In this document: positions 1 through 43,182 of the stretch, piece by piece
Numbering within the stretch: the stretch's first letter is position 1
How the letters are laid out: each line of letters begins with the position of its first letter
DNA from: Rhizaria sp. SCN 62-66
Taxonomy: Eukaryota
Direction of reading: 5' to 3'
NCBI GenBank assembly: GCA_001724265.1
Contig: MEDY01000245.1
Span: forward strand, 1-46,139
Length of the DNA: 46,139 nt
Program-made: the position numbers and the translations under genes
Notes under the pieces: model-generated
Database searches by the model: none
The model's input: the letters and a program-made list of their open reading frames with translations, nothing else
Told to the model about the DNA's origin: nothing

Positions 1-1264
1 AAGTTCAGCGAGTACAAGTTCCCCACCAAGGAGGAGACCGAGGCCGCGGCCAACGATGCCGACGCCACTGCTAAGCTGCTGCTGTCGCGTCGCCGCTTCG
101 TTAACCTGATGCGTTTTGTCGGCGAGCTCTTCCTGTGCCGCAACGTGCTGGCCTCCAAAGTTGTGCGCATCTGCATCAACACTCTGTTTACGGCCGCCAC
201 GCACGACGTGCCCCAGGTCGGAGAGACCAACTGGCAGCCCGCCGAGGATCAGATGATCATCGAGGACGCCATGGAGGGTCTGTGCTGTTTCCTCACCACC
301 ACGGGCCGCCTCTACACCGAGGTCAAAAACCCCCAGTGGCAGGCTGATTTCAACGCCGTAATTGCTCGTCTTAAGGCCATCGCCACCATCCGTGACACTG
401 ACCGCCTGAGCTCGCGTATCCGCTTCGCCATCGTCGACGTCGTCATGCTCGCGCGCAACAACTGGGTCCCGCGTTCCGGTGCCCATAGCGGTGGCTTCGC
501 TGCGCTGTGCTCCGATGTTTACATCAAGCAGCTTAAGGCCTAGCTTGCCGCAGCTCGTGTTGCCGTGCTCAAGGCCACTCTTGCTGTCGCACTGGCCGCC
601 AAGGCCAATGCATCTGCTGATGTTGAGGCTAAGGCCAAGGCTGCCGAGTCCAGGGCCCACTCCCCCAAGGCAGACGACGACGACGAGGTCTATGAGGACG
701 ACGAGGTCTATGAGGACGACGAGTTCTCTGAGGACGACGAGACCTTCGAGAACCGCATGTCGCGCCACTGCGCAACATGCTGTTGCCGCGGGCGCCACTT
801 CGACCTCAAGGAGTACGACGAGGTCTATGAGGACGACGAGGTCTATGAGGACGACGAGGTCTATGAGGACGACGAGGAGGTCGAAGGGGCTGCGCCCATT
901 CCCTCTGACGACAACGACAAGCCCGTGTCCGAGGACGAGGCTGAGGCTGAGGCCGAGGCGGGTACGGAATTTGGCGCTGCGCCGACGAGTTCACGACCGA
1001 CCTCGAAGACCAGGTGCCTCAGAGGAGATGAAATCCATCTTCAACGAGTACCGCGCTGGCCGTGAGACCAACAAGCTCAAGGCACGCATCGCCAAGCTTG
1101 CGCTCACGGGCGACCGCGACGTGCTCATGTTCACGGCCGTCACGGCGCCTCTCGCGGTCGCGCTCTCCGGCACCAATCTGCAGGAGACAATCGAGGTACT
1201 CATGACTGCTTGGAGCCTGCTTATCGACAATTATTATAACACATTCCGAGTTAATCTAGCTTAA
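1..1264 (+). CDS. eIF4G-type MIF4G-domain protein, 5'-partial; in-frame TAG at 541-543 and a frame change near 960-1015 before an MA3-like tail
   Basis: Frame 1 is open from base 1 (KFSEYKFPTK...SRRRFVNLMRFVGELF...EGLCCFLTTTG...LSSRIRFAIVDVVMLARNNWVPR), matching eIF4G MIF4G motifs. The frame continues past TAG 541 with the same codon bias into acidic repeats. The frame-2 tail EEMKSIFNEY resembles an MA3 start and ends at TAA 1262-1264. A 52-nt GTACGG..CAG intron at 962-1013 would join the two frames (uncertain). Confidence 0.65.
679..879 (+). repeat. 18-bp coding tandem repeat GACGACGAGGTCTATGAG (DDEVYE) in two blocks
   Basis: Units at 679-696 and 697-714 (degenerate copies 715-750), and at 814-831, 832-849, 850-867. 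The blocks flank HCATCCCRGRH. Confidence 0.9.
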
Positions 1265-1591
1265 AGTTTTCAAAAATAATATTTGTTGACTTAAAACCCA
1301 TCATTTGACGCGACATTTATCGAGGATCATGAACGGCTTCTCGTATTTCAAGATATACTTTAAGAAAAAACAAAGTTTTATAATGTCCTGGTCATTTTCC
1401 AGTCTCCTTTTTTCTTTCCCAGGAATGACAACGGTTTAGACTGATGCCCACAGGTTTTTTACATCAAAATATGTATGATTTTGTACGATCACAATATTTA
1501 AGAACAAAAACAGTAGTTTATAATACATAAATTCTAATGTATCTCATATTTACTAATATATCAAAAAAACTTACGATAATGAAGATGTAAA

Positions 1592-4500
1592 TTACGGTTG
1601 ATCGCGCCTCGCCTGCTCCTGACCCCCTTCTTCCAGATTCCTCTTGCGCCCAATCCCCGCACTGCGTCCCGCACCAGTTCTAGTCGAAAAGCCGGCCGCG
1701 GCCAGCGCGCCGCCCGCGCGGGCCCACATCTCCCGCTGTAGCCGGTACACCTCCTTCTCCCAGTCCAGACGCAACAGCGCGAACGCCACCTGTTCGGCGC
1801 TCGGGGCCGCGTCCGCCGCTGACATAGCCGACGCCGCCGACGCGGCAGCGGCGCCCAGCTCGGCCGCCAGCGCCACCGGCGACAGCGGACACGCAGCGGG
1901 AATCGCCACGGGCGCGTGCCACACACCCTCAGCCCCGGCCGCAGCCGCAGCCGCAGTCGGTGAAGTGGAGCTGGTCGACAGGGGCGCGGCGGCGGACGCG
2001 GCGGCAGCAACGGCGTCGGGCACTGCGCAGTTGCTCAAAGCTACGCATGTCGCACCATCAGCACTGCTAGCACTCGTCACGAGCGAAGACTTTGCAACGT
2101 AGGCGTTCACCCAGGCACGCACAGCTGCTGTGACAGCATCCGCGTTGGCGGCATACTTGTCTACGCTCACTCCACCGCCTCTGGCGCTTGGGCCCGCAGC
2201 CCCGGCAGCGGTCACGCCGACAGTCCGGAGACTGTTCGCGAGCAAGGGGTGTCCCCAGCCCCAAGAGGCAGGAAACGCGCGCAGCGCCCGCGCCACCGCG
2301 CCCGCAGTCGCCGGGTAGTTCATCATGTTCTTCTGGCAGAAGCCGCGCAGTGAGAACGCCGCTGCGGCCGCTGCAGCCGTCGCGGCCGGTGTCGGGGCGC
2401 CGGAGCCGGGCGTGGGGGCGCTGAGGGCGGCGAGGAGCACGCGCTGCGCGACCGTCGTGGCGCCGCTGGCTAGTAGCACGCGAGCGACGGCGGTCGCCGT
2501 GGGCGCCGCGAGGGCGAAGCAGAGGCCCGGTTTGCGGGAGCAAGAGCCTGAGCCAGAGCTAGGGTCAGGAGTCTCGCGGTCAGTCACCGAAAACGCCTCA
2601 CCGTCACTCTCATTGTGAGTTGAACAAGCAGGGGCGAACCATTCGCCCTTGACGAGAGCTCCGCTAGCGGCTCTTGCGTTCGTTACACCGGGTCCTGTCG
2701 TAGTCGCATTCGTGGCGGGCGTAGACACAGGCGTGGTGCAGAGACAGGAGCACAACGGCCACCACGGCAGCGGGCGGGGGTAGTACTGTTTGTCGCGCGC
2801 TGCAAACGCCACCGCCAGTGCAGCCGCAGCAGCAACCGAGGCATCCGGTGCACCTACATTCGCACTGTCAGTGGATGCGTTCCAAGGAGCGGACAGAGCA
2901 AGCGCAGCTTCGACTTCCACACGAGCGCTGTCGTTGTTGCTGCTTAGATTCGAGAGCGGGAATGGGATCGCGACAGGCGCCAGCGAGTTTGCCTCGAGCG
3001 CGGCAGCGACAGCGGGGTCAGCTGCCACAGCATTGTGCGCGGTCGCGGTCGGCGCAAGAGCAGCGGCGGCTTCGATGTCGGCGGCGACAGAGGCAGCCCG
3101 CGTCACAGTGTCGGGCTCAGACTTCACCACGCCAGTCGCAGACTGCGGCGTCGTGTTGCCGCTACTGCTGCCGACGGAGCCCGCACCGTTGCTCTTGGGC
3201 GTGACGGTCATGGCGGCGAGAGGAAAGCGGAAGCTGAGCGCCGGGCTGCTCCCCAGCAGCGCGGCCTCCGCCTCGGCCTTGGCCGCGCTCTCGGCCACCG
3301 GTACCGGCAGTAGCGCGCCGGTGCTCGCGCCCGTAACGACGACATCGCCGTCGCTTGTGCTGCAAGACACCGCACTAGCACCCGCACCTGCACCGGCATT
3401 CAGACGCGCGTTCGCGCTGGTGCTGTTCGGGAACGCGCCAGAGCCCGCGCTCGCGGCTGCGCTAACATGGCGATTCGCGGCGAGCGCGGCCGCCGCATGC
3501 CCCGCAGCGACCGCAGTCGCGGTGGCGGCGGACACGGTCGCAGCGAGGTGCCGCGCGATGATCCCCGCGCGCGCCGTCACGGCCTTGACCTCCGACGCCG
3601 ACGTGCCGGTGGCCGCGGCCAGCGCCTCGAGCGAGGCGCTTTCCCAGTCGGTCGTCGTCGCGGTGCGCTCGCGGTCCGCGATGGACTGCGCTTGCATCAC
3701 TAAATGCGACGACGAAGGGAGCAGCACGACGGAGCCACTGACAAAGTTGGAGCCGGCGCTTGCGTGAGGGCTTGGTGCTGATGCGGCAGCAGCTGCCGTA
3801 GCTGCAGTGGAAGCATTGGCGCTATAGATACTGCCATTGCGAGCGGTGTTGCTCGTGTTGTCAGCTGCACAGCTGCTGCTGCTGCTGGTGTTATTCGCAG
3901 TCTTTACAAGCCATGGGCTCTTGGTCGCAGCATCAGACGCAGAGGTCAGGCCGTTTTCCTCGGCATCAGACATCACAGTTGCAGCATTGCTCGTATTCGG
4001 CAAGGGGTTGAGAGCCGCAGCCGCGACGGCGGGGACAGCGACGGCGTCGGGCAGTGCCCCCTGCGGTGCGATCCGCGTGATGAATCCCTGCTCGTCCTTG
4101 ATGACGGCGACAAGGTTGGTGACGAGCCCCTTGCGTTCGCTCACGCGCCGGATCAGAGCCATCAGCGCGGGCCCGTACGTCTCCACCTTGCGGTCGCCGA
4201 CGCCGTCGATCATGCGCAGGTGCGCGGCGTCCACAGGCCGCTTCGCCGCCAGCTCGATCGTCGTCGCGCGCGTGAAGATCATGAAGGGCGCGACGCGCCG
4301 CGCGCGGGCCTCGCTGTCGCGCAGCGCGGTGATCTCGTGCCACAGCTCAGTCTCCGCGGGCGACAGCCTCAGCGCCGCGTCCACCGCTGCGCCGCCCGCC
4401 GCATCGCCGCCCGCGCCGCCGGCGGCGGAGGCCGACGAGAGCTGCAGCATCAGTTTCTTGATGTCTTCGGGCAGCGGCAGCAGCAGCGGCGGCAGCGCGA

Positions 4501-7500
4501 CCGACGCGAAGGGCTTCCGCCCCGCGTACAAGTGCTCCGTGCCGCGCACCGCGCGCCCGTTGGGCACGGGGTCGTCGGTGTCGGTGCCGAGGACGTTGAC
4601 GAACTCGCCAAGCGTCTGCTGGCCCTTGTCCGTCAACGCAGGTGCCGCCCAGGAACGGCTGAATCCGCCGCCGAACCGCCCACCGCCACCGCCACCGGTG
4701 TTGAGGCTGACCGTCTTCTCGACGACGTAGCCGGTTTCGATGAGGCTGGCGAGCACGGCGGCCCAGTAGGCCGTGCCCTGCCCCGTCACGCCCGCAGCGC
4801 GTGCCACGTAGCTGGCGCAGCCGGTGAAGCCGCGCGCCTGCTCGGCGCCGATGACCAGCGAGCGCTTCTTGGACGACGTGCCCCCGCTGTGCGCAACCGC
4901 CTGCGCGGCGTACACCAGCGTCGGGTCGCGCGTCAGCACCAGGTCCATGAGCGTAGACTTGCCGATCCGCTCATTGGTCTTGGCAATAATCGACAGCAGG
5001 CAGTACGCCTCGCGGCACGCGTCCACCGTGGTGTGTGAGGTCACCCCCGCCGTCGCGCCCAGGCAGACGTCGCAGCCGGTGCACTTGACTGTGGTGGCCG
5101 CGGGGTCGTGGAAGTAGCGCATCAGCGTGCGGCGCCGGCACTCGCGCGCGGTCGCTGCCGCGGCCGCGCCAACCGTGGCCGCCGCAGTCACCGTGCCGGT
5201 CCCGAAGCAGTAGTCGGCCATGTGCTTGAGCAGCGTCTCGGCACGGCCCGCACTCTCGGGCGTGCTGCGCGCGGCGTCGAGCGCGATGAGCGACCGCGCC
5301 GTGGTGAGGTCCTTCGTGTCGCACAGCAGCAGACACTCGGCGGGGCCGTTGTCGCGCCCGGCGCGGCCCGTCTGCTGGTAGTATCCTTCCAGCGTAGTAG
5401 GCACGCCGTAGTGCACGATGCGCCGGATGTCGGGCTTGTCGATGCCCATGCCGAAGGCCGAGGTGGCGACGAGCACGTCCAGCCGGTCGTGCAGGAAGTC
5501 CGCGTGCGCCTGCGCGCGGTCGCGGTCGGACCGGCCTGCGTGGTACACGCCCACGCGCAGCTTGCGCGGTGGCGGCAGACTCGTCGGAATCGCGCCAGAC
5601 GGGCGCTGGACGGAGAAGGTGCCGCTCGTCACAGCGCTATTGCCGTTCACGTTGTTGTTAGTCGCATCGACGACGTGCTCCAGGTCGTCACCGACATTAC
5701 AGTTAACATTCGCAGTGTTTGCATTATTCGCAGTATTCGCGTTATTCGCAGTGCTTGCATTATTCGCAGTACTTGCATGAGCGTTGCCGTTCGCGGGCTT
5801 GACAGGGGACGCATTGGCACTGCCAGAGCGGCTGCCAGTGGCAATCAGCGGCAGCGTGCTCTGCCGCACAATCACCGTCGCTGCGCCCGCGCCCGCGGGG
5901 CTGGTGCGCGAAAACGGGTTGTCTTTGAGCGCAAAGCGGGGCGTGATGGCGCTGCCTGGAGCCGCGGCCGTGGCAGTGCGCTTCAGCGCGTAGATGCTCG
6001 GCCGCGGCAGCGTGCTGGAGCCCAGGCCCGGCGCGATGAGCCCGCCGGTGACCGTGCGCGCGACGCCAGAGCCAGCGGTCGTAGTGTTGGCTGTGCCGGC
6101 GTGAGTGGCAGTGTCGCGGGTGGCGGCGTCGTCGTCGTCATCGTCACTGAGGTTGACAGGCACGTCGTCGTTGACGTAACGCAGCGAATAGTCCTCGTCA
6201 CGGTCACGGTCACGGTCAGGCTCTGCGTCGTCATCTTTGCGCTCCAAGTTCTCGCCTGACGTACTACGACCGATCTCAGTTGATTCCTTCTCAGCCTTGA
6301 CAGCCCTATCGTAAATCACACTGCGGTCACCGCTGGTTGCGTCAGATTCACGCGCGTTCGCTTGAATGGTCGCCGCAGCCTCGGCCGCCGCAGCTGCGTT
6401 GGCCGCCGCTGCGCGCGCGCTGGCTGCGGCCACGGCGGCGTACGACGTGAGTCCGCGCTTGACCACCTGCTGCGGTGCGCGCGGCTGCTGCTGGTCCAGC
6501 TGCTGTTGTTGCTGCTGGTACGCCGAGGCGTCGAACGCGGCGCCACAGCCCACAGGCACTGCGCCGACTGTCACGGCGTCAGGCAACGCACTGGCGCTCA
6601 CATTGGAGCTCGAGTTGGCGCTCGAGCTCGTGTTGTTCATCAGAGCGTTGAAGTGCGCTCCCTTCGTCGCGTTCATGAGCTCCGTGACGTACGCCTCGAC
6701 CGACGCGAGGCTAGGCTCGGTCCAGGTGATTTCGCTGAGAAAGCCCGCCAGGTCTTCAGCCTCCTTGCGCGTCTGTGTGTAGATAAGCGTGACGCCTCCA
6801 TCGATCGAGCCGCAGACCCAGGGGTTGCGCCGCGGGAACGCATCCCCGCCGTCGACGCTGTTGGCTGCGGCCACTGCGACGTCGGCGGCGCGCAGCACGA
6901 CGTCGTTGCAAACGTCCACTGAGACAGCGCCGCCATGCTGCCGCTGTTGCTCGAGCTGCTGTTCGCGCCACTGGCGCACGAGGCGAAGCTTGCGCCGAGT
7001 CATCTCGCTGGCGCTGGGTACAAAAAGCGGGCGCAGGTCGCGCGCGCGCGCGGCCGAGGCGCTGCCGGCAACCGCGCTGGGCGTCTTGCGGCGGACGAAA
7101 TACACCAGGTTAGGCCGGTTGACTGTGCCGATGTACCGGGACACGGGCGGGAGCCAGTTGCGGGAAAACGCACGTAAACCAGCCCCGCCATAGTTACCGT
7201 AGCCGCCATAGTTGTCATAGCCAAAGCCGCCCCCGTCGCTGCCAGTGGTCCCAGTGCTGCTGAAGGGCGGTGGCTCTTGCAGCCCCATCTGCGCGATCAC
7301 GTCGTCGACCACGGCGGTCGTGGCCGTGGCGGTTAGGCACACGACTGGCAGGTCCCAGCCCAGCGCCTCGCGCACCTGGCGTAGCTGGCGGAACTCGGGG
7401 CGGAACTCGTGCCCCCACTCGGACACGCAGTGCGCCTCGTCCACAGCCAGTAGCCCCACCACGCCGCGCGCGCGCAGGGAAGCCAGGCCGTCGAGCCAGC

Positions 7501-8243
7501 GCAACGCCTTCTCGGGCGCCATGTACACGAGCGCGAAGTGCCCGCCGCGGTACAGCGCGTCGAGCTCCTCGGCGCGCGTGCTGGGGCCGAGATACAGCGC
7601 GCGCACGCCGCGGGCGCTGAGTCCGGCGACCTGGTCCTGCATGAGAGACACGAGCGGCGAGATGACAACCGTAGTGAGCCCCGTTAGCAGCGGCGGCAGC
7701 TGGTAGCAGAGCGACTTGCCGCTGCCCGTGGCCTGCATCACGAAGCTGTGCCGCGGCAGCGTCACGGGGCCCGTCGCGCGCGGGACCACCGAGACGGAGG
7801 CGAAGTCGCAGCTCACGACCGCGCTCGCGGTCTCGCTGGCGCTGTCAGAGCTGCCGGCCATGTTTGTGAGCGGGAAAAGGAAGGATGACGTGGGTGGCGC
7901 GCCCGCGCTGCCATTGTTTGAGCCGTTGTTGAACGGAAAGGGCATTGCTGCAGTCGGATGCAGTCCTCCTGTATTCACGCTCTCAATATCAGGCAGAGAG
8001 TACGCGAGCACAGCGTTCGTAACGGCGCCGATCTGGAAGGGCTTCAGAGACGCAAAGCCGAAGGTGCTACGGAGCACTGCTTGCAAGCGCGCTGCAACGT
8101 GGGGAGGCAGCTCATGCGCAACAGTGCCAACAGAGACAGAGGTGGATGCAGATGACTGGCGATACAATGACATTAGTCGATCATGCGAGCTGGAAGCGGC
8201 TGGCGCATCATGCTGACCCTGTGTATGTTGTTGGTGCTGCTAC

Positions 8244-8276
<33 letters not shown>

Positions 8277-8629
8277 GACTGCTGCGGCTCCGGCTTGACG
8301 CGGGGCTCAACCGTCGCAGTTGGAGTCGCGGTCGCTGTCATGGGTGGACGCAGGTCGCTGCTCGTCGTTGGACGGAGCTCGCTGTTGTCGGTCGGGCGCG
8401 GCAGCGCTGTTGCTAAGCTTACAGTAGGCACCGCAGAAGACCCTGATGCCGCTGTCGGTGTTGCTGTTGCCGTCGTGGCCCCTCCTCCAACTTGAGTCTG
8501 CGTTTGCTGCTGCAGCGGCTGCAGACCAGGCTCTGACTTGACTACCGGGGCTGTCGCTGCTGCTGCTGCCGCGGCGGCGCTTGCACGGGCAGCAGCAGCA
8601 GACGCCGCAGCCTTCTTGTATATAGACAT
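1592..8629 (-). CDS. RECQ: RecQ-family DNA helicase (WRN/RecQ-like: helicase core, RQC, HRDC); 2345 aa if TAG 8240-8242 is decoded
   Basis: Motifs FGFASLKPFQ, ATGSGKSLCYQLP, VDEAHCVSEWGHEFRP, LTATAT, NRPNL, YHAG, VATSAFGMGIDKPDIR, YYQQTGRAGRD; Zn ligands CRR..CTGCDVC; HRDC (LRDSEARARRVAPFMIF..IDGVGDRKVETYG). ORF 8240..8629 is in frame with 1592..8173 across a single TAG. Ends TAA. Confidence 0.92.
5709..5780 (-). repeat. 18-bp coding tandem repeat x4 (A[S/N]TANN) inside the RecQ insertion
   Basis: TTCGCAGTGTTTGCATTA-like units start at 5709, 5727, 5745 and 5763. Confidence 0.85.
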
Positions 8630-9366: not shown

Positions 9367-10173
9367 TTACTTCTTGCCGTACTTAAGCTGCTTGGTGAGG
9401 AGGTCGCGGTTGAGCCACCAGACGGCGCCCTCAGTGCGGGGCTGGCCCTCGGTGCGGGTGCCGGAGGCAAGGCCGCGGGAGGCAATGCGGACAGCAGCCT
9501 CGGCGGTGATGAGCAGGCGGCGGAGCTCCTCGGCGAGGGGGGAGGCGTGGAGCTGGGCGAGCATGTTCTTGGCGGTGAGGCCCTTGACGCCGGGGAGGAG
9601 CGACTGCTCCTCGAGGCGGGTGCGCTCAGCCTCGTACTCGCGGATCTTGCGGTTGACGTCCTCGAGGGCGGACTTGGCCTTCTCGAGGGCCTCGTTGACG
9701 GGCTCGCCGGCCTTGGAACGCTCCATGAGGTCCTTGGGGGAGAGGTCGTACTGGTAGAGGAGGTACTCGAGGAACGAGACGCGGCCGTCGAAGTTGACGT
9801 CGACACGCTCGCGGATCTCCTTCTTGCGGACGATGGCGGTCATGTCCTTGGGGATGGAGCGGGGGTAGTTCTCCTTCCAGCGGGCGTTCTTGGCGTCGTC
9901 GAAGAACTTGAAGATGGTCTCGAAGAGGTGCAGGGCCATGTCGAAGTCAAGGTCGTTACCCTCGTTGTAGAGGTGGTAGTAGTGGATGTTCTTGTTCTTC
10001 ATGTCGACGTACTTGATCTTCTCCCAGGCGACGTTGTAGATGCACTCGGCCTCATCCTTGAGCTCATCGTAGAAGGCGTTGAGGATGAAGATCGCCTGCT
10101 CAGAGAAGCTGCGCTGGGAAACCTCGTTGAAGTACTTGAGCGACTCGGCGTCAAGCTTCTCGACGAAAGACAT
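9367..10173 (-). CDS. abpB: Calcium-regulated actin-bundling protein (Dictyostelium ABP34-like, EF-hand), 268 aa
   Basis: Start MSFVEKLD at ATG 10173, where strong GC3 codon bias begins. EF-hand DVNFDGRVSFLEYLLYQY. C-terminal GVKGLTAKNMLAQLHASPL..LITAEAAVRIA is typical of the ABP34 F-actin-bundling domain. Ends TAA. Confidence 0.85.
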   Translation of the reverse strand: MSFVEKLDAESLKYFNEVSQRSFSEQAIFILNAFYDELKDEAECIYNVAWEKIKYVDMKNKNIHYYHLYNEGNDLDFDMALHLFETIFKFFDDAKNARWKENYPRSIPKDMTAIVRKKEIRERVDVNFDGRVSFLEYLLYQYDLSPKDLMERSKAGEPVNEALEKAKSALEDVNRKIREYEAERTRLEEQSLLPGVKGLTAKNMLAQLHASPLAEELRRLLITAEAAVRIASRGLASGTRTEGQPRTEGAVWWLNRDLLTKQLKYGKK

Positions 10174-10894: not shown

Positions 10895-13800
10895 TTACAC
10901 CCTGGTGCTTGTAGTTGACATAAGGAGGTCGGCATAAGCACGGTCAACGTCAAACTGCTCTTCAGCACGACCAGGGGACGCCTTGGAGTTGACACTCATA
11001 GCCCCTGTTACATCAGTGTCAGTGGGCTCGATCACGTGATCGACGAGACCGCACTGCTTGCATTGGTACACAGTGCACATCGGAGTTTCAGTCACAGCAG
11101 ATCCGGTGTTACTGGTACCAGTGGACGAAGAGCTTCCACGTTTGCGGGCACAGTCTTTGTCGGTGCAGATAGACTCCGTGACGTTGATATGCGCACAATC
11201 ATTTTGGCTGTACTGGGGCTTGGACTTGGATTTGGATGTCTGTGATTGAGATTGCGGCTGATTGTGGTGTAATAAAGCGTCGTTGCTACTCGTGTTGTTA
11301 CCACTGCTACTGAGATTGCCGCGAGCAGCATAGTTCTCTGCCGTGAGGTTTGCTAAAGCTGCTTCGACCATAGCAACCTCACTCTCCAGTGCAGACCGAG
11401 GCTGACTCTGGCCGGACGCAGAAGTTGAGTGGTCATTGGCAGCAAAGCTCCGATACAACTCTTCGACATCAACATCGCCGTTAAGCTGCTTCGGCTTTGT
11501 GTCCTTATTGTGGAAATCGCTATTCCTTAACAAACCTTTGTTGGTTACTGATGGCTGCGCATTTTGGTTTGACTTCGAGACAGCAACAAACTCGATGTCA
11601 TCGAAGTCACCAGCAAACCGATGCTGTAAAGGTACTTGCTGTGACTGTTCTTGTGCTAGCTGTGGCGAGCTAAACGTGCTTGTGTTAGCAGTGGAAGCAT
11701 TCGTGCGTTCGTGCGCGGGCACCCACACCCTCTCCACATCCGCATCGCTCTCACTCAAACTCGGCTGATGTTGTGTGGTTGCGTTGTTCCGCGAGAAGAG
11801 ACTTCCAAACCATGACTTTGCAGGCGCACGCGCGGTGGTGCCAGTCTGAGCAGACGCTGCACTGACATTGATGTTAGCGACTGGGGAAGCAACAGACGCG
11901 CGCTTTTGTGCCAGCATGGACTGCACGAACGCGAGATCTTCTGCGTCGTCATCTTGAGCATTACCGATACGGTTACTATTGTCACCAGCACTCGGCTTCG
12001 GCCCAACTTGTGATGCCCCAACCTCAGATACAGATTCAGGGTCAGTCGTATACGCAGCACTATTCCTATCAGCAGGGTTGTCACTGTGGTTCAGAGCGCT
12101 CTCAAGCTCAGCCATCGCCTGTTGTTGTGACTGCGCCCGCGCTTGTAGGGCTGCCTCAGCCTCAGCAGCGTTCTCGAAAGCGCTCGGGCCGTAGTTGCCA
12201 CCAGCCACCACGTCATTGTAGTTGGAGCTCTCATAGTTAGCGGCCGCAGTCCGCAGCCACAGTGCAGCTTGTGGCAGCGCAGGCGGGATCAGACCGGGGC
12301 AATGCACGGGCCGCTGCACCACGATAGCGCTCGCGGGCAGTTGGGGCAGCAGCGGATGCGGGCGCTGTTCCAAGTCACAGTCGCCACAGCCGTCATCAAG
12401 CGCGAGCGCTGCGGCCACCGCGGCGTCGTTGTCGGCGACCTCGACCGCGCGACACAGGCCGAGTACCAGAGCGTCCGCAAGCGCGCGCACTGTGCGGTCT
12501 ACGGTGCGGTCGGCGGCGGTATTCGCAGCGGTGCTTGCAGCAGTAGTCGCGCTGGAGCTACCGATGACAGCACTAGATGAACTAGCGCCCATGATTGCTG
12601 AAGTTGGCAGTGTCTTGTTGGCATTGCTGTTAAACGTGTTGTTGTTTACAGGGGCACTGATTGCCATTAAACCACTCGCACCACTAACGACATTGCTCCC
12701 GTTGTTGCTCGCAGTTATAGTCGTCGTGCTGCCTTGAGCTCCGATATCGCGGGTGGTAGCAGCCGAAGCAGCAGCGCTTGCGGCAGCTTTTGCGACAGTC
12801 TGGAATAGGGCACTGACTGGCGCAACCCCAAGCAACACGTCCGCCAACACCTTCGCGTCCTCAGCGTCAACACTGCTCTTTGCGCCAGATCCATTCACCG
12901 AAGCAGAAGAGGCCAGTGCGTTCGTGTTGGCGCTGGCGGCTGCAACGGCCGAGGCCCACTCGAGGTCGCCGGCGGCAGTGCTGTTTCCAGCTGCAGCCGC
13001 GGCGGCAGAGGCGTGGTGCATTAGCGACAGCAGCGGTGCGCGCATTGCGGCACTGCTAGATCCTGCACCAGCTGTGGCGGCGCCAGCGGCCGAAGCTGCG
13101 GCAGCCGCAGCAAGTGTGGCCGCGGCAGCACGCAGAGTCGTGAGCGGGAGAAGCAGCGGAAGCAACGCACTGATGTTAGAAGGCGTAGAGAGCGACGGGG
13201 ACGCGTGCAGCGCTGCAGCAGAGGTGGCGGCGGCCGATGCACGAGCCAAAGCGAACCGTGCAGTAGCTGCCATTGCTGCCGTCGTTGCAGCATTAGCAGA
13301 GACTGCAGTATTAGACAACGATGCCCCTGTTTCTGGGTGTGCATTTGGGCCTGTGACGAGATTGCACGGTGGACGCGTTGGCAGGGGGAGCACGTAAGGG
13401 GATGAAAAGTCTTCTTTGACGCCGTCTAAGAGAGGCGGTGCAGTATCAGCAGCTGTAGATGCAACGGTGACAACCCACGGGGATACAGTCGTATCTGCCT
13501 CCGCATCAAGATCAACTTGAGCATTCTTGTCAGCAGCTACTCCTTGGTCCCCACTCGGCATGAATTGAGAGCACGTGACCGCGGGTACGGTGGCGCGCAG
13601 TGTCGACTGCGCGACAAGCGGGAAGCGGCTAATGAGAGCCCACGCAAGTCGCTCAAGAGGGCTTGCACCGCTGCTACCAGCGCCATCACGGGCGGGTGTC
13701 TGAAGCAGTGGCGTAATCGGAGAGAGCAGAGCGGCACCGCGCGTTGTCGCGATGACAGCAGCCTCCGACACATAGCTGTGATCACGAATGCTGCTGTGCT

Positions 13801-16800
13801 CGTCTTCGTTTTGATTGAATTGATCTTCGTCCTGCCCAATGGTCGTATTGCGCGCCGTGATCAAACGCACATTGTGTGCAGAGTTAGCAGCATTGACACA
13901 GTCGGTGCTTTGCTCCCACGGCGACTGCGTCATCAGCGGATGAGTGGCGACGCCGACCGCGGCGCGCACTGACGTACTCTGCAACAGCGCATCGACTGCA
14001 CGAGCGGACGCCTGCGCTTGAGATGCTGACTGTGCTGAACTTGCCTGTGCATGCAAATACGCGTGTGTGACGCAGTGCGCAGGGGTCGGCAGTGCGCTGT
14101 GAAGTGACACTGTGGTGCGCCTCCTGCTGCCACCATTCGAGCCCGCAATCACGCTCGGAGCAGGACGCTGGGAAGGTCGCGCAAGTGCAGTGGTCGCGGC
14201 GGCAACTGCGGCTGCAGTATAAGGCGCAAGCATCGCGTCAGTACTGTAGGCCTCACGCGCCTGGTGCCACAGCACGACGTCGTGCCTTGGCCGACGTGCG
14301 GTCGTGACCAGTTGCGACAGAGGACGACGGGAGATGAGAATCGACGGCAACTCAGAGGGGGTTGAAGCTGCCTGTGCGCCTGCGGCCACGGTACTGTTGA
14401 GTGCAGTCGTGAGTGGCAAAGAGCGCCAGGGCGGTAGTGACGCCAGGACGGCTGCAGATGGCGAGGACTGCGCAGGTAACGGCTGCCCGGGAATCGGCGG
14501 ATGCGTCACCCAGGAAACTGCGGTGTGAAGGCGCGACAGCTGCTCAGAGAAAAGTCCCTTTTGCCGGTTCAGCAGCTCGGCGCGTTCCCTGTCTTCCGGC
14601 GCGGGCAGCGCCGTCAGAGCGGCGGAGAGCGCGCGGAGGCGCGTGAGCACCGCGGAGAAGCCCGCCAGATCTCCCCACAACGCGGTCTCGAGCAGCGGCA
14701 GGTCAGCATCGAGGTCGATCGTGAGCGCGAGCGAGGTCACAGTGGACAGCGCGGTCGCAACCGGGAGCTCCATGCGCACGCGCACGCCCGCGCCGACGCC
14801 GACCTTGGCGGTGTTTCCGTGGCGAAGTCGCTGCTTCACCAGCGCAGACTCGGCGAGCATTGCAAGACGCTTGCTGTTGCTGCGACGCGCGTACACGGAG
14901 ATGAGCGCGCTCACACTTGTCACCCTCGGAAGATCACTGTCAAAGATGTTCGCAGGAGCCGTCGTCGCAGTATTGTTTGCGTCGTTTGCACAGACATTGT
15001 AGCCGCTGTTCACAGTGGGCGTAGTGAGTGATGGTAGCATCACACCTCCAAACGCAAACTCAGCACCCACAGCAAACGCGTCTTCAAGAGCGCCGGCAGC
15101 AAACAGATGACTCACCGACGGCGACTGCACGTCAACTCCACTATGTGGAGCAAGCGTTGCAGTCGGCACACTGTTGGTCCCATTAGCGGCACTTTTAATT
15201 GACGCTGGTGCAGTATCAACACTTGGATTCGTTGAGAGTTGCTTCGAGATGGCGGCCATACTCGTGATGCCAGCGTCGGTGATCGCCGTAACAGGGAACA
15301 CTGAGGTGGCAGCAGCAAGTGCGTCAGCCTCTGCTTCAACTTCAGCTTCAGCAGCCTCAGCGGCGGTCTCTGCTGCAGCCGCAGCCGCTGCTTCTTCCTC
15401 AGCAGTCCCGGCAAGCGGAAATGGCAACGTCGCGTGTCCTTCCTTGACGTTGATGTGCGAATTAACGGCTGACGTTACAAGCGACGAGCGCGCGAGGCCA
15501 GATACACGCATGAGAACAGACGACGCCAAATGGGCGCGAGTGGCGACTGAGGCGGCCGCCATAGCAGCCACTGTCGCCGCAGCAATCTCAGTGACTCCAT
15601 GCGCTTGAGGGCTTGGAGCCATCTTTGAGTGAGACTGGGGAGTTGCGCTCGTATGAGCTAACGAGCGTGCAAGGTCGACTGCAGACGCCGCCGATGCGGC
15701 GGCCGAGGCCGGCGCAGTTGCGGCAAACGCCAGCAGTAGCGACTGCGTGTAACGGCGACCAGCTACAGCAACGGGGCCCTTCGGCACAGTCTTAGTATCT
15801 GTTGCATCAGCGTCGGAGTTCGTTGTGTTTGCGACCAAGGAGCCAAGGACAACCGCGATGTCCATGCTGACAGTCGCAATCATCGAGTTCGCCGCGACGA
15901 GGTGGTTGGGCTCAGGTGTCTCTGCGGCCGTTAGCTGCGACAGACACGCCGCGGCGGCCGCACGCGCCTGTTGCATCCGCGCCAACGCTCCCGCGAGAGT
16001 GCTAATGTACCGCTTCGCATCTGCAATGGCGGCCAGAGTGTGGCGCGGCGCAGGAACTGCGTTCATCGGCAACAAAAGCGACTGTGACATCAGTTGTAGA
16101 GGAGTGAACGGAGACCATGCCAGCGGACGCGGGTGCGCCGCGCCGCCGACAGCGACGGCATCGACATCGTGACTGCCTGGGATGGTGTTGCACGGCAGCG
16201 CACCCATTGCAGTCGCAGTCGCAACAAAGCGCGCGATAAGAGACAACGGATTCACATCTAATGTTGGTACGAGTGTACTGCGTCCTTCGTCGTACGAGCT
16301 TGCGCTTGCGCTCATCGCGCGTGAGTCCACATTGCCCACGGTCGCGGGCGCCGATGCGGCTTTACTTTGGTACGCCGGGTCGACGACAAGCCCGCGAATG
16401 AGGTCGGGGTGCGGCCCCCACGCCCCGAGCACGGCGCTATGCAGCGGCACTACGGCGTCGCTCCACGCGGCAAGCGCGGCGACACGCACGCCGCGCCGCA
16501 GGAGCAGGTGCATGTTTGCGGCGTGGGCGCGCGCCGCCGAGGTCGAGGGCGCGGTGAGGCGGAACAGCTCCTGCGTGGCCGGGAGACCGTCGGTGAGGGT
16601 GTCGCGGTACGGCCCGTGGTGGGTGCCAGCGAGCGCCAGGAAGGAGAGAGATTGTGTGCACGGGTCCAGCACTCTGTGAAAGTAAGAAACAAGAACATAC
16701 GTTAAAGACTAGTTGCAACTTCTACATTTCAAAAGATAACGATCGAAACATGATAATACACTCCCGCATCTGACGATCAATGATTTGGTTGAGAACGTAC

Positions 16801-38008: not shown

Positions 38009-38403
38009 CCCCTCTAAAGACAGCAAGAAACAAGGAAAGATCGGCTGTGAGCGCGAATTTGAAATTGATTATATGTGAACATACGGCGCGAATATCAATA
38101 AGTGGTGTTTACATTTAGATTGACGTTCAGAACATGGAGAGCTGAGCTGGTTTTGGAATGGGTAGATCGATCGACGCGACCTGGCTGCTGCCACCGATCG
38201 ATCGTGGTGACCGAGGTTCTGAAAAATCGCGACTTTACTGAAGCTAAACCAACAAAACACTGCGTAATTCTGTGATATCGATCATTTCGATACAAATATC
38301 TACTATTTTGTGTATATAAATAGTCTAAGTAACATAAAAACGTATATATAACAGCATATCATAGTGCTATGAAGCAACAGCACTCGAAGTAATTAATGGC
38401 AAC

Positions 38404-41400
38404 TTAAAGCCGTTTCTTCGCAATAGCGTTCTCAATCGTCGTCTTCACGATCATGAGCTTCTCCCCAAGCCTCGCCAATTCTTGCACACTCATTTGCTCC
38501 CACGGCCCCGCCCTCCCGCCGACCGCGGTCGCCACAGACCACGCCGTCGCGGCCGCCAGACAGCTCTCGAGCCTCGCCGCCTCGGCCCTCGTCGCTGCCG
38601 ACACCTCGCCCCTCGTCGCGGCCGACACCTCGCCCCCCGCGGTCCCGCTCGCCGCGCCGCCGCCGCCGGTAAGCCGGTCCCGCAGACGCTTGATCTCCCG
38701 CGTCAGCGCGAGCTCGCGCTCCGCGCCTTCCTGTGTCGCCTCCTCCCAGCCTGCGGCGCGCGCGGCGGCGACTTCGGTCTCGGCGGCGCGGGCGCGAGTC
38801 TCCCAACCGGCGGACCCGGCGGCCATCTGCGCGACCTCGCGCGCCCAACGCTGCCGCACGGCGCGCTCGCGGGCCACGTCGTCGGCGTTAAGCGCGCGGT
38901 ACCGCTCGAGCTCGTACGAAAGCGCGGACCGCAGGGAAAGACATTGGGACAGTGCGGCGAGCGAGTGTGCCGCTGACATCGTTGCCTGCAACGGTGGCGA
39001 CTGGGGTGATTGTGAGTCAGAGTCCGTCTGCAGCTGCAAGGTGTCGTTTGCTGATTGCGATTGGGAGCCAGTGGTATTGCTCTGCGTATTTTCAGTGTGC
39101 AAACTACTCGCGTTGCCACTATTGCTAGAGCTTGCATTGTCTGCTACTGTGTAGTCGTCGTTACGCTCGCTCATTGCTTCCTCGAATAGCTTCACCATGG
39201 CAAGTGTATCGCTGCTACTGAGCGCAGGCCACGTCGCCAGCGCTGGAGGCACAGCTGCAGCGGCGCGCGCAGGGGTGACGCTTAAGACTGACGGCGCCAG
39301 CGACGCACAGAAACGATCAAGCAACGAACTCATCTTGGCGTTATACTGTGCGTCACCAGTAGTGCAATGTTTGCCCAGCAACGAGTGGGTTAACCGGAAA
39401 AGTGCGTTGCCAGTACCGTGGTTTGTTGATGCAGTGTCTTCATCTAATGCGGCCGCAGCAGTCGCGGCAACGGTGGCGGCCCTGGTGAAGGCGGCTCGGA
39501 GCACGAGCGCTGACTCGCGATCACATTCATCGCCGCGTAACGCTGATACAGGCACAGCTTTAGTCAAAACATCATCGCTTTCACTCCCTCCGCTTGAGAT
39601 CTCACTCCTTGACGCTGTGGCAGAGGCGGCCTTGGCACTCGCTGCAGCCTTTGTCGTCGCAGAGACGAATGCAGGCGCGGTGTCGTCGTCGTCGCGGAAT
39701 ACCGCGCGCACTGCGGGGCTCAGCGGCGTCGGCACTGGCAGAGACGTGCTGCTGGTCGGCGTGCGCGGCGCTTTGTGGCTGTTGCCGCTGCTACGGCGGC
39801 GTGGCGGGCTCTTAGACGTCGCGTTGCCACTCTCAGACGCAGGCGCATTTGCGAATGCAGACAGTGGTAGTTGCGTAGATTGCTTGCTGGCAAAGACGTT
39901 GGTGTTGTTGCTAGACGCCAGTACCGCTGGTGTGGTGCTAACGCTGCATGTGTCGTCGTCGGAGTCGCTTGAGGCTAGATTGATCACGTTGGTGATACTC
40001 TCTGTAATGTATCTGCCCGAGTTTGGAGAAACAATCGGCGCTGCCGCTGCGGCTAATGCTGGAGTTGTGGCAGTTGAAAGAATCGGTTCCTGCAGGTAGT
40101 TGTCACCGCTCATGCTTGAGACCGCAGTGGCAATAGCACGCGCACGAGCGGATGCGTCACGAGCTGCCTCCGCGACCGCAGGGTCGTCGATCGCGGACAC
40201 AAAGCTCAAAATGTCGCCGCTGAGTGCTCCACTGGCGTCGGAACGCTTCTTACGCAAAGCTTCTTGAATCCACCGCCCTGACTCCGGGGGCGGCAACAAA
40301 TGTGAATAATCGTTGCTACTGCTCCCATTCGTCGCAGAGCTATTACTCACAGAAGAACTGTCGCCGGGAGCCGTCGACGCCCCAGAGCTCTGCTCACTCG
40401 CAGTGTTCTTGGCGCTCCCGCTGCTGCTGATGTGGATGTTGCTGTTGCTGAGGAGCGCACTCGGCGCCGGCAGCAAGCAGTCTGCGCTGTCATAGCTCGG
40501 GTCGAGCGCGCCGCCCCCGCGCGACACCACGATGGACCCCGCGGCCGCACCCGTCGTCACGCTGACGGGGCCGCCCATGGCGCCGCTGACGTTGTCGTGG
40601 AAACCGTGCGCGTACGCGACGCGCATCGGAGACAGCTGTGTGTGCGCAGCAGCGGAAACCGGCGTGGTGTGAGTGCTGGCGCTCGTGGCGTCATCACCTG
40701 CAGTTGGATCTGAAGAAGAAGCCGTGAATCCATTGGTTAAGTTGTTGTTGCTGGTGTTACTGGCTGCAGGAGCACGGAAGCACCCCGGCGCAAGCGGCCT
40801 CATCTGTGCACGCCCGGTCCGCAACGCCAAGGTGGCGAGAAAGCCGGTGCCCGCTCCAACCCTGGCGCTTGTGATTGGCGCAAACGCATTTGCCGCGTCG
40901 GCATCAGCGGTCGCCGCAGCGATGCCTGGGGGAACAGGCAAGGGCAGCAGATTCGGTGGCGAAATGGCTGTGCTCGCAGCGACGCTACTCGGATTAACTC
41001 CGTCACCAGTAGTTGGGTTCACAGTGCTGGTAAGCAGACTGAGTTTACGCTGATTGATCGCCACAGGAATCTTACTCTCGCGAGTGTTCGCGGGCATTGA
41101 CGTGATTTGACCAACACTTGATGTTGCGCTATTATCGGCAGCAGCTAATGTGGCTTTGGTAGCGGCAGCAGCGGCAGCGGCAGCAGCGGCCGCTGCAGAT
41201 ACATTGTTATTATTGTGGTTGCTGATGTTGTTCGTATTCTTGTTGTTGCTGTTGTTCGCGGTAAACGCAGTCGGCGTTGCGCTCGCGTCGAGGCAATTGC
41301 TCCCGTGCGCTGCGGAAATGCGACTGCTCACGGCCACCAAGTCGCGCGCAGTCGCAACGCCGCCGACTTCTGCGCTGTTCTGAGCGCGGCTAGGCGTCAC

Positions 41401-43182
41401 ATCCTGCGCCGACCGTGCTGTCGGAAGAGCGTTGAAGTTGAGCTTGGTCGCGCTCGAAGGAGTGCGCCCAGTGTAAGACGGCGCGGGCGTCGAGGTGACT
41501 GCAAATGATGGGTCGCCTCTACCAGGATAACTCTGTCTAATAATCATGACACTGTGAGGAGCAGGTCTTTGAATGATGTTGTAAGCTGCAGCAGCGGGGA
41601 TAACTGTAGCTGCAGGTTGTTTACTATGCGATGTTTCTGATGTGGTCTCGGAAGCGTTGTTTGTCGCAGCCACGCGGGGCCGTTTAGCGGTAGCGTCGGC
41701 ATTAGGCGGTGCTTGAGCAGAAGATGCAGAAACAGCTATATTCTTTGTGCTGCTGCTATTCTTGCTATTCAGTGTGTCAGCCGCCGCGCGCTTCAGCCCC
41801 CGATCGTTCGCACTAACTGTGGTCTCAACTCTAGCTGGCGCACTGTGCAGATTTGTGTGTGGATTAACGAAAACAAGTTCGAAGTCGGCGTCACTATCGT
41901 CGTCACTGCTGTCACCGCGCAAGGTATTGGACTGCGTGATTGGAATTTGAGTTGATGTCGACAGATGTGGCTTTGTCGCCGCAGCCTTCGGGGCAGAGCC
42001 GGAAGCGGTAGCAGCAGCAGCGGCAGCAGCGGCTGCGGCCGCCGCGGCAGCGGCTGCAGCAGCGAGCTTGTTTACAGGCGGCGGTCGCTGCGCACATGCA
42101 CTCGCCGCGTTGCATACGGCCACGCCAAACTCGTGTTTACTGCCACCGACCCTAACAGCGTTGCCGCGAACATAAGCGTGTTGAGGTTGCGGCTGCAGAC
42201 CGTACCGTGACGGTGAGTGCTGCAAAAGCGACTCCGGCCTCTGTCGCCGCAGCTGCTGTTGGTGTTGGTGTTGCTGTTGCATAATCGCGCTTTGCCCCGC
42301 CGCCGCGGCCACGGCGAGTGCCAGCTATTCCGCCTCCGCGGTCACGGGGCAGCTCGCGGCCAGCGCACGCAGCACGTGCGCGGTGGTCTCGCTCTCGAAC
42401 GGGGCCGGGGCCGCGGGCCTGGTGCTCGCGACGCGGCTGGGGCTCGCTGCCAGAGCCGCTGTCACAGTGACGGCCGTGTGCGAATGCGATTGCGCCTGCG
42501 GCGGTGAGATTGCCACAGCGGCTGACATAGCGGCAGCGCTAGGTGAAATGACGTGACGAGGAGGCGTGCGGGACGGCGAGGGTGAGCGGCGGCAAAGATT
42601 AGCATTAGTAGAGCTTGTAATCACGGTAGCACTTGTGCTGACACTGCTGAGAGACGCGCTTGGACTCGTGGTGATCGACGCGTAGGAGTTTGTGGAGAGC
42701 GCAAAAGAAGCTTCGTGGGTGTCACAGCGCGTTGACACCCCCGAGATCAACGACGATGGCGACAAGGACGACGACACTGGAGGGGGGCTTGCGAGAGAGG
42801 CTGCAAACGCGGCCCGGTTGGCGGTGGTCTGGAAGTCGCGCGCATTGACGAGAATCGAGGGATTGAGTCCCTGATCTGTCAAAGTCACAAACCTGCGCGC
42901 AGTGTTCGGGTCTGCGTAGCGCGGTGGAGGTGGAAGCAGGCGGGATGGTGTGCCGGGGGCAGAGGAAGCCGAGGCTGGAGCATGGGCAGGAGACAGGGAC
43001 GTGGGCGGGGTGCCTGGGTGTGGCACCGCTGTGTGCGCTGCCATAGGGCTTTGGTGGACAACAGTTGGTGCATGATTTGATGGTATGTTATTAAACCATT
43101 CGTCAAGAAGTGCTATGCCTTTCAGGGCTGATCCTGCAGCGTTCTGACGCTTTGACGAGTTAGAAGGGGGGAAGCGATCCAT
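38404..43182 (-). CDS. Large low-complexity protein with C-terminal coiled coil, 1592 aa if TAG 42325-42327 is decoded; function unknown
   Basis: ORFs 42325..43182 (ATG after an AT-rich spacer) and 38404..42312 are in one frame, separated only by TAG CTG GCA CTC GCC. C-terminal heptads and GPWEQMSVQELARLGEKL. Ends TAA before an AT-rich spacer. Confidence 0.75.
38587..38634 (-). repeat. 24-bp coding tandem duplication (GEVSAATR x2)
   Basis: CCTCGTCGCTGCCGACACCTCGCC followed by CCTCGTCGCGGCCGACACCTCGCC. Confidence 0.85.

Follow-up and report, generated by a model that had tools for sequence, protein, structure and literature searches.

UAG as a probable rare glutamine codon in nuclear genes of an uncultured GC-rich eukaryote

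Analysis of a 46,139-nt stretch of contig DNA (the window) revealed that UAG is probably a rare sense codon for glutamine, with termination carried out mainly by UAA and also by UGA. The organism probably reads UAG as Gln because TAG codons are located inside intact genes and the genes end with TAA or TGA. The original prediction, according to which UAG specifies an amino acid (probably Gln) and UAA a stop, was thus supported in part: both TAGs of an ARM-repeat gene lie in conserved sequence aligned with Gln and no gene terminus is TAG, but the evidence comprises only five codons in 46 kb, and that at 541 may be a genuine terminator or belong to a gene in decay. Under the preferred reading, UAG would be decoded by the cytoplasmic ribosomes as an amino acid, of which glutamine is the most probable. 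By analogy with other UAG-only reassignments, as described in the available parts of the reports (PMC5304391, PMC11687900), UAG, but not UAA, would be recognized by a tRNA-Gln that carries the anticodon CUA and would have arisen from tRNA-Gln(CUG), and eRF1 would have a weakened recognition of the third-position G. No tRNA gene was detected in the window by ARAGORN or Rfam, and the eRF1 gene was absent from the window.

In-frame TAG codons and gene ends

Five in-frame TAG codons were found at 541 (+), 8240 (-), 25797 (-), 24687 (-) and 42325 (-), and the frame continued on both sides of each. As had been predicted, these codons fall in four genes, which corresponds to 4 of the 11 genes, and the same frame resumes after every TAG. 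The gene models, comprising 11,449 codons, contained these five TAGs and no in-frame TAA or TGA, in agreement with the claim that no intact gene is broken by the latter two. The predicted rarity of TAG was also evident, as UAG accounted for 5 of 419 Gln codons (~1.2%). Among the 11 definable gene ends within the window, we found ten TAA, one TGA and no TAG codons, the same count as in the original prediction, although site 541 could be a terminator. The TAA termini were those of the RecQ (1592, -), ABP34 (9367, -), giant orphan (10895, -), ANTH (24045), CRT (33268), gene H (35032), COMM (37154), gene I (38404, -) and gene J (44469) genes and of the MIF4G tail (1262, +), and the TGA terminus was that of the ARM gene (24516, -).

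The sequences that follow the TAGs and the true termini were different. On the 3' side of each terminus, the GC content decreased to 0.23-0.50 over 150-180 nt and one to six more stops occurred in 50 codons, whereas on the 3' side of each of the five TAGs a GC content of 0.49-0.65 was kept and no stop occurred within 50 codons. The AT-rich 3' spacer that had been reported as missing past the TAGs was indeed not present there. We also considered whether TAA might be a sense codon, and this was rejected since AT-rich sequence with numerous stops lies past all of the TAA termini. A codon-usage score trained solely on genes without TAG showed that, of the nine flanking segments, eight scored highest in the TAG's own frame when all six frames were compared, with the coding signal persisting for 139-300 codons beyond the TAGs. 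The exception was the N-terminal segment of the ARM gene, which is supported by homology instead.

Under the standard code, the TAGs would be nonsense codons in pseudogenes or truncated alleles, or borders of upstream ORFs (8240, 541), and we regard this explanation as very unlikely. It is favored by the finding that TAG is the most accessible stop: a random nonsense change in this codon mix leads to TAG 59-62% of the time, and 20%-45% of these routes start at a Gln codon. The occurrence of TAG in 5 of 5 cases is therefore weak when taken alone (p = 0.07-0.09). The coding signal past the TAGs argues against the standard code, which would additionally need 4 of 11 neighboring genes to be pseudogenes without a frameshift or a TAA or TGA codon, MIF4G apart. 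Mixed stops, frameshifts and lost constraint, which are expected of pseudogenes, were not found in ARM, RecQ or gene I, with MIF4G as the exception.

The base following the TAG was C at all five sites, compared with background frequencies of 0.237 for codons in general (p = 7e-4) and 0.45 when only Gln codons are considered (p = 0.019). A C after the stop codon is the weakest termination context. Because UAG is rare and always precedes C, the reassignment may be young, or decoding may still be competing with the release factor. The same context, which is above background, and the very low UAG usage are also consistent with a leaky or dual-use UAG, in which a weak stop is read efficiently by the near-cognate tRNA-Gln(CUG), with no dedicated tRNA, where the context is permissive (a C after UAG, or Q-UAG-Q). 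In-frame TAGs would then be tolerated in such contexts alone, and UAG may end other genes. The TAG at 8240 lies in such a Q-stop-Q context, and the available part of a yeast preprint describes this context as promoting Gln insertion at premature stops (PMC13192750). On the other hand, four of the five TAGs are early or mid-gene, so that with partial readthrough 4 of 11 genes would lose the greater part of their product, and none of the 11 termini is TAG. We consider a leaky UAG unlikely, although the window cannot tell it from a true reassignment that is still competing with eRF1. The geometry of programmed C-terminal readthrough was found only for the TAG at 24687, which is 56 codons from the gene end; the other four TAGs are early or mid-gene, upstream of conserved domains.

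Genes containing TAG

The ARM-repeat gene (24516..26135, -) is the strongest case for a putative sense UAG. This gene encodes 539 aa when TAG is counted as a residue and ends with TGA. Its homologues belong to only two lineages with 36-38% identity, and a profile search with the ARM alignment returned none that were new. One lineage, represented by P0002, consists of four sequences that share identities of at least 90% and carries Q at both TAG positions; the other, P0003, carries R and Q, respectively. P0002 and P0003 cross both TAGs without a gap. The first TAG (25797..25799, -; codon 113 of 540) is the best-supported candidate sense TAG and is located inside an invariant G-x-P-D-D motif, where it is aligned with Q in P0002 and P0287-P0289 and with R in P0003. 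The second TAG (24687..24689, -; codon 483-484 of 540) is aligned with Q in 5 of 5 homologue sequences ('AMQL' or 'ARQL'); past this position the homologues extend for ~52 more residues, and the window contains 56 codons followed by TGA. For the two sites combined, the aligned homologue residues were Q in 9 of 10 cases and R in one, which represent two independent lineages only. Also in favor of the preferred reading, the Q content of P0002 is just 3.4%, and only 5 of the 23 ordinary Gln codons of the ARM gene are aligned with Q. A CAG-to-TAG nonsense mutation would likewise align with Gln. Two other meanings of UAG were rejected: none of the 10 aligned homologue residues is Leu, and pyrrolysine is disfavored by the Gln alignment. 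To our knowledge, pyrrolysine at UAG has no eukaryotic precedent.

Conservation in the region preceding the first TAG is no lower than in the remainder of the ARM protein, which is a further point against the standard code: identity to P0002 is 43% in the 112 residues before this TAG (106 columns) and 38% in the middle part. The AlphaFold model of the whole protein (pLDDT 72.9) is all-helical and forms a single importin-alpha-like solenoid that matches importin-alpha over ~480 of 539 residues or columns, and residues 1-130 of the model have pLDDT values of 70-86. The ARM frame is without any other lesion, as it contains no TAA, TGA or frameshift. A decayed ARM paralogue (27148..27516, -), with 35% identity to residues 320-451 of the ARM protein, adjoins this gene, and its presence could be taken in favor of decay under the standard code. 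However, this relic, used here as a pseudogene control, is the sole clear pseudogene in the window and looks quite different, with flanks shattered by many stops in all frames, unlike the TAG-containing genes.

The sites outside the ARM gene are weaker; we rate 42325 as good, 8240 as moderate and 541 as ambiguous. Gene I (38404..43182, -), an orphan gene identified by coding score, encodes 1592 aa with TAG as a residue, ends with TAA and has no Pfam match. Its TAG (42325..42327, -; codon 287 of 1593) is preceded by 285 codons and followed by at least 300, the TAG's frame being the best of six in both parts, and neither a GC drop nor a stop follows. The RecQ-family helicase gene (1592..8629, -; Pfam DEAD, Helicase_C, RecQ_Zn_bind and HRDC) contains long low-complexity inserts and ends with TAA. 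Its likely start is the M at 8629, which places another TAG, at 8660, upstream of the start. The in-frame TAG (8240..8242, -; codon ~130 of 2346) is located in the N-terminal extension within a (CAG)n run, in the context QQQQQQQQQQQ*QHQQ, and both flanks score best in the TAG's frame. Around 8240 and 42325 the sequence is of low complexity, and neither site has a homologue that can be aligned. In both RecQ and gene I, there was no in-frame TAA or TGA and no frameshift, and the coding signal was present on both sides of the TAG.

The fourth gene is the 3' part of an eIF4G-like MIF4G gene (1..1264, +; Pfam MIF4G), whose homologues are eIF4G proteins and whose tail ends with TAA at 1262. The TAG (541..543, +; codon at least 181 of the partial gene) follows the MIF4G domain. 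Over the 139 codons that follow, the TAG's frame outscores the other five (0.43 bits per codon) and the GC content does not change; the sister-strain protein P0004 ends exactly at this TAG. A separate frame change had been predicted for this gene, and we observed frame changes downstream of the TAG, including one near 960-1020. The gene also lacks 16 conserved residues. This additional damage favors the standard code at this locus. The frame change could be repaired by a GC-rich 'intron' of 61 nt, but this was given no weight because it is unlike the real introns of the contig, and no MA3 or W2 domain (Pfam) was found in the tail at 1004-1261. The TAG at 541 is thus ambiguous: it may be a sense codon, a true or relic stop, or part of a decaying gene.

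Introns, independent assemblies and RNA contigs

An artefact, namely an assembly or sequencing error or the removal of the TAGs by splicing or editing, is extremely unlikely, although the window comes from a metagenome assembly and introns do occur on the contig. The contig is not intron-free. The giant orphan gene (10895..21288, -), which has three exons, ends with TAA and served as the intron control, contains two canonical GTACGT...YAG introns of 106 nt (17820..17715, -) and 127 nt (16800..16674, -) with a GC content of 0.36-0.37. Its spliced CDS is free of internal stops and encodes 3,386 aa; an in-frame TAG at 17800 lies inside intron 1. In the COMM gene, two TAGs are located at splice acceptors. 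Introns therefore account for three further TAGs and for none of the five. The real introns of the contig are AT-rich, measure 71-127 nt and have the form GTACGT...YAG, and no such element was found on the correct strand around any of the five TAGs. Splicing is accordingly unlikely at 541, 8240 and 42325, where this signature is lacking, and the two ARM TAGs are not spliced out because the homologue alignment is contiguous across both.

The same TAGs were found in independent contigs and records. The ARM TAGs were unchanged in contigs from other studies, with 0-1 differences per 1.1-1.7 kb piece; the TAG at 25797 was present in contigs of the X2 and X4 datasets and that at 24687 in an X2 contig. 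A separate metagenome record (L003) is identical over 7825-9526, including the TAG at 8240. Exact TAG-bounded ORF fragments recur on 2 contigs for 25797, on 4 for 24687 and on 7 for 42325, the last being the upstream fragment of gene I (P0291) on 7 contigs from three sources. Assembly error is excluded at four of the five sites. The standard code would need the TAG-containing genes to have persisted unaltered as pseudogenes across samples of at least three studies from 2015-2025, which counts against it.

In a 20-kb stretch that includes the TAGs at 8240, 24687 and 25797, no RNA contig from a polyA run (X15) or a doubtful RNA run (X11) covered any of the three, with 8224-8297 skipped as a repeat, and no splice joint was seen in the RNA contigs of either run. 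The listed sources of the ARM gene include no RNA dataset. The organism is transcriptionally active, as polyA RNA contigs matched three non-TAG genes of the contig with 100% identity. Standard gene callers have cut the genes of this organism at each TAG: a public protein collection contains two pieces of the ARM gene (112 and 342 aa) and one from the start of gene I (285 aa). Under the preferred reading, its annotation in metagenomes is therefore systematically wrong.

Source organism and comparison with known codes

The host is an uncultured, GC-rich and intron-poor eukaryote from wastewater and bioreactor samples. The contig is at least 46 kb long (up to 90 kb in another assembly), with ~58% GC and introns of ~100 nt. 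As a taxonomic marker, we used the gene for an ABP34-type calcium-regulated actin-bundling protein (9367..10173, -; Pfam PF18060; PDB 4x3n, E 4e-81), which contains no TAG, ends with TAA and is expressed (polyA RNA contigs at 100% identity). The sequences nearest to this gene are rhizarian and amoebozoan. Among the 120 matches listed, the best named relative was the rhizarian Guttulinopsis vulgaris (65% identity), and none of the five named sequences was from a fornicate. A tree of this single gene, built by a quick method from 46 of the 120 listed matches, placed the window among metagenome sequences, with neither Guttulinopsis nor the amoebozoans; kinship with Guttulinopsis is a lead only, since the tree does not group the two. 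The named MIF4G matches were animals, plants and one choanoflagellate and were uninformative on lineage. Searches of the Atlas gave broad taxonomic hints only, and no sign of ciliate affinity was seen anywhere in the window. One metagenome scan with the ABP34 protein returned only three short contigs of 1.2-1.7 kb, and scans of prokaryote genomes (two) and viral contigs (two) with ABP34 and the ARM alignment as queries gave no match.

We tentatively suggest, at odds less than even, that the host may be an amoeboid protist that is neither a ciliate nor a fornicate but belongs to Rhizaria (perhaps close to Sainouroidea) or Amoebozoa, and that it is in an early or incomplete UAG-to-Gln reassignment. 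In such a stage, UAG would be gone as a terminator, make up ~1% of Gln codons and be confined to sites where C follows. If so, this organism would be a living example of the intermediate predicted by the codon-capture and ambiguous-intermediate models, and if it is a sainouroid, it would represent a second reassignment of UAG, to another amino acid, in the clade of exLh.

Nuclear codes that part UAG from UAA are very rare and bear on how ribosomes, eRF1 and tRNAs discriminate between the two codons. The original prediction emphasized this rarity, which needs updating, as UAG for Gln with UAA as a stop is now also reported for Hartmannula sinica and Trochilia petrani (PMC11687900). In the portions of the reports available to us, such codes comprise exLh, Iotanema, three phyllopharyngean lineages and one oligohymenophorean (PMC5304391, PMC11687900, PMC10553269). 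The code type proposed here ('table 15' pattern) is already known from Iotanema and two ciliates, while the lineage appears to be new. A sense UAG in the window would add an independent case, from an environmental protist that is GC-rich and not a ciliate, in which UAG is used very little and the downstream context is uniform, and would offer a rare view of an early phase of reassignment.

In the fornicate Iotanema spirale, according to the part of the report considered here (PMC5304391), UAG encodes Gln and UAA and UGA are stops. As in the window, only UAG occurs in frame, it is aligned with Gln and it is the rarest Gln codon. Termini are dominated by UAA in both (104 UAA and 15 UGA in Iotanema; 10 TAA and 1 TGA here). 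In contrast, UAG accounts for ~8% of Gln codons in Iotanema and ~1.2% here, and the Iotanema code was based on 126-730 transcripts, reads and a change in the eRF1 GTS motif, compared with five codons here. The host of the contig also looks unrelated to Iotanema, being GC-rich and having an ABP34 nearest to rhizarian and amoebozoan sequences. The phyllopharyngean ciliates Hartmannula sinica and Trochilia petrani share the same code table, with UAG as Gln and a strong preference for UAA as the stop, within the material taken from that report (PMC11687900). However, UAG makes up 18.5-31.8% of their Gln codons compared with 1.2% here, and 78-84% of their genes contain UAG compared with 4 of 11 here (PMC11687900).

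The rhizarian exLh (Sainouroidea) uses UAG as Leu and UAA and UGA as stops, and resembles the window in its UAG-only reassignment and UAA-dominated termination; in another sainouroid, Guttulinopsis vulgaris, nearly all sampled transcripts end with UAA (PMC5304391, in part). The difference lies in the meaning of the codon, which is Leu in exLh, whereas here 0 of 10 aligned residues are Leu and one TAG is located in a poly-Gln run. Condylostoma, karyorelicts and Blastocrithidia are similar to the window in a possible dual use of a codon as stop and sense. In such context-dependent codes, as far as the source covers them (PMC11687900), the same codon also terminates near the 3' end, whereas 0 of the 11 termini here are TAG, and the sense-like TAGs of the window share one downstream context, with C as the next base.

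In-frame TAG codons and gene ends

The window contained long genes on both strands, mostly without introns, with a GC content of 0.47-0.70 per 2 kb over its 46 kb and of about 58% for the contig overall; its source is a eukaryote. We assigned an eIF4G-like MIF4G gene by its domain (1-1264, +), a RecQ helicase with DEAD, Helicase_C, Zn-binding and HRDC domains (1592-8629, -), an ABP34-type actin-bundling protein (9367-10173, -; PF18060, PDB 4x3n at E 4e-81), a giant three-exon orphan gene with no Pfam domain (10895-21288, -), an ANTH protein (22119-24047, +), an ARM-repeat protein recognized from its homologues and an AlphaFold model (24516-26135, -), a CRT-like transporter (28315-33270, +), a COMM-domain gene (about 37154-38100, -) and three orphan genes, H, I and J, with strong coding signal. 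The RecQ protein (2,346 aa) had a low-complexity insert of about 580 residues between DEAD and Helicase_C, and the CRT-like transporter (1,651 aa) had very long extensions rich in Ala, Ser, Thr and Asn. The intron signature of the organism was defined by the two canonical introns of the giant orphan gene, 17820..17715 (106 nt) and 16800..16674 (127 nt), both of the form GTACGT...YAG and AT-rich (GC 0.36-0.37), whose removal left an open CDS of 3,386 aa. Two or three short introns of 71-114 nt were present in the COMM-domain gene.

All five TAGs of the original prediction were located and lay in frame: 541 (+) in the MIF4G gene, 8240 (-) in RecQ, 25797 and 24687 (-) in the ARM gene and 42325 (-) in orphan gene I. 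As it had also claimed, neither TAA nor TGA interrupted a gene in the 11,449 modelled codons, and the 11 gene ends comprised ten TAA, one TGA and no TAG. Downstream of every terminus, GC dropped to 0.23-0.50 and 1-6 extra stops occurred within 50 codons; downstream of the TAGs, for which the absence of an AT-rich 3' spacer had been proposed, GC was 0.49-0.65 with zero stops in 50 codons. When all stop codons of the window were screened on either strand, no TAG showed the signature of a terminator. UAG is tolerated within functional-looking genes and absent from these 11 termini, and UAA is the usual terminator; that TAA closed 10 of the 11 genes despite the GC content of about 58% indicates a strong terminator bias. 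When codon usage was scored with a model trained on TAG-free genes only, the frame of the TAG outscored the other five in 8 of the 9 flanking segments. Four further TAGs were rejected as in-frame sense codons: 17800 lies inside intron 1 of the giant orphan gene, 37607 and 37520 are splice-acceptor YAGs of the COMM gene, and 8660 is upstream of the likely RecQ start.

That only TAG interrupts these genes is by itself weak evidence for reassignment, because a random nonsense change in the present codon content yields TAG 59-62% of the time (p = 0.07-0.09 for five of five). Similarly, 20% to 45% of the routes to TAG begin at Gln codons, so that alignment with Gln alone cannot distinguish sense use of TAG from a nonsense change of CAG to TAG. 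Taken together, the evidence argues against pseudogenes: 4 of 11 adjacent genes are hit and none except the MIF4G gene is otherwise damaged, both constraint and coding signal persist past the TAGs, and the TAGs are unchanged among samples dated 2015-2025. Additionally, the window has a single genuine pseudogene relic, a decayed tandem ARM paralogue at 27148-27516 (-) with 35% identity to part of the intact gene (residues 320-451), and it looks quite unlike the TAG-bearing genes. This relic lies within a 2-kb low-GC stretch that has no long ORF.

Support for the individual sites

The two TAGs of the ARM gene are strongly supported as sense codons. Among 5.8 billion proteins, homologues were found in two lineages only, represented by the protein record P0002 and its three close variants in one case and by P0003 in the other, which showed 36-38% identity to the ARM gene and an alignment that was gap-free through both TAGs. 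TAG 25797 falls within an invariant G-x-P-D-D motif, where four homologue sequences have Q and P0003 has R, and TAG 24687 falls within AM-x-L, where all five have Q; the Q content of P0002 is 3.4%, and of the 23 ordinary Gln codons in the ARM gene only 5 were aligned with Q. The 112 residues before TAG 25797 were 43% identical to P0002, compared with 38% in the middle part. The AlphaFold model of the protein showed a single helical solenoid (pLDDT 72.9) that resembled importin-alpha across about 480 columns, with residues 1-130 among its best-predicted parts. A start after TAG 25797, as in the public gene call P0001, would cost two to three conserved repeats. We also observed that in P0003 and in P0288, another relative of the ARM protein, the initial M coincides exactly with a V of P0002 that lies 57 residues inside the conserved N-terminus. 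Such a start would be consistent with gene calling resumed after an in-frame stop further upstream, a hint that these relatives may likewise carry sense TAGs.

Both ARM TAGs were reproduced in run X2, and TAG 25797 also in run X4; the two runs belong to studies other than the source. Contigs from X2 showed no difference from the window over 23849-24969 and a single one (at 25272) over 24943-26292, and an X4 contig showed none over 25043-26724. In public assemblies, the exact ORF fragment ending at TAG 25797 (P0290) was present in two contigs and that between the two ARM TAGs (P0001) in four.

Support for TAG 42325 as a sense codon is good. Same-frame coding sequence extends for 285 codons on one side and at least 300 on the other, so that the standard code would leave one of the two parts of gene I untranslated; the ORF fragment ending there (P0291) was found in seven contigs from JGI, Logan and ENA. 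For TAG 8240 the support is moderate: the codon lies within a CAG run and 129 upstream codons carry coding signal, and a Met 25 codons downstream could be an alternative RecQ start. A separate metagenome record (L003) matches window 7825-9526 exactly, including this TAG.

TAG 541 is ambiguous. The 139 codons that follow it score best of the six frames (0.43 bits per codon) with the same GC, and the AT-rich 3' flank starts only past TAA 1262; its sole support as real DNA is P0004, which comes from a sister strain (90-kb contig) and ends exactly there. Weighing against a sense reading, the separate frame change claimed for the MIF4G gene was recovered near 960-1020, and the gene lacks 16 residues (VSGAAVSAHAPKKMKR) that are kept in P0004 and in eIF4G homologues. 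Because the tail repeats a motif, ETFENRMS...RGRHFDLKEY (window 739-816), that P0004 has near its N-terminus, this tail could be a relic.

Occurrence and lineage

Window DNA was present in bioreactor and wastewater metagenomes. Of 16 runs listed, 13 contained part of the ARM gene, four of these with at least half of its words, and the runs containing it represented eight studies. Among the 120 ABP34 matches listed, five of which carried an organism name, the best named relative was Guttulinopsis vulgaris (Sainouroidea, Cercozoa; 65% identity), followed by the amoebozoans Stygamoeba (59%), Stenamoeba (58%) and Rhizomastix (57%). A quick single-gene ABP34 tree grouped the window with neither Guttulinopsis nor the amoebozoans, placing it among metagenome sequences; we regard a sainouroid affinity as a lead. 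exLh, a rhizarian with UAG=Leu, is a sainouroid, and nearly all sampled transcripts of G. vulgaris are reported to end in UAA (PMC5304391). The ABP34 genes of two relatives (L001 and L002) end in TAA too. Variant ABP34 contigs, about 91% identical over window 9430-10120, occurred in DNA run X2 and in the polyA RNA run X15, with differences spaced mostly by multiples of three bases; a co-occurring, expressed sister species or paralogue is behind them.

Probable decoding of UAG as Gln and comparison with known codes

All five TAGs (541, 8240, 24687, 25797 and 42325) are followed by C, compared with a background of 0.24 for all codons (p = 7e-4) and 0.45 after Gln codons (p = 0.019). A C following the stop codon generally provides the weakest termination context. 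The main rival to a sense codon is efficient near-cognate readthrough of UAG with no dedicated tRNA; a yeast preprint (2026) reports that Gln is inserted at stop codons with neighbouring Gln codons on either side (PMC13192750), and site 8240 has such a context. On the sequence evidence, we consider it fairly probable that UAG is a Gln sense codon, with UAA and UGA as terminators. The observation behind the original prediction therefore stands, and its interpretation, UAG as sense (probably Gln) with UAA as stop, is probably right, based on five codons, two of them with strong support. Since CUA is the only anticodon that reads UAG without UAA, a tRNA-Gln(CUA) would be expected, as would an eRF1 weakened for a third-position G, following the established logic of UAG-only reassignments (PMC5304391; PMC11687900).

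A code that assigns UAG to Gln and keeps UAA and UGA as stops is already known from Iotanema spirale (PMC5304391) and from the ciliates Hartmannula sinica and Trochilia petrani (PMC11687900); in the open-access literature, taken without supplements, our searches revealed no description of it for Rhizaria, Amoebozoa or wastewater eukaryotes. The organism is probably a further case of this known code, and possibly an early-stage UAG reassignment: the low UAG usage and the C after all five TAGs suggest that the reassignment is young or still contested. A terminator bias similar to the TAA bias of the window has been reported for Guttulinopsis, exLh and Iotanema. In contrast, UAG accounts for 5 of 419 Gln codons here, which is below the shares published for Iotanema (about 8%; PMC5304391) and for the two ciliates (18.5-31.8%; PMC11687900).
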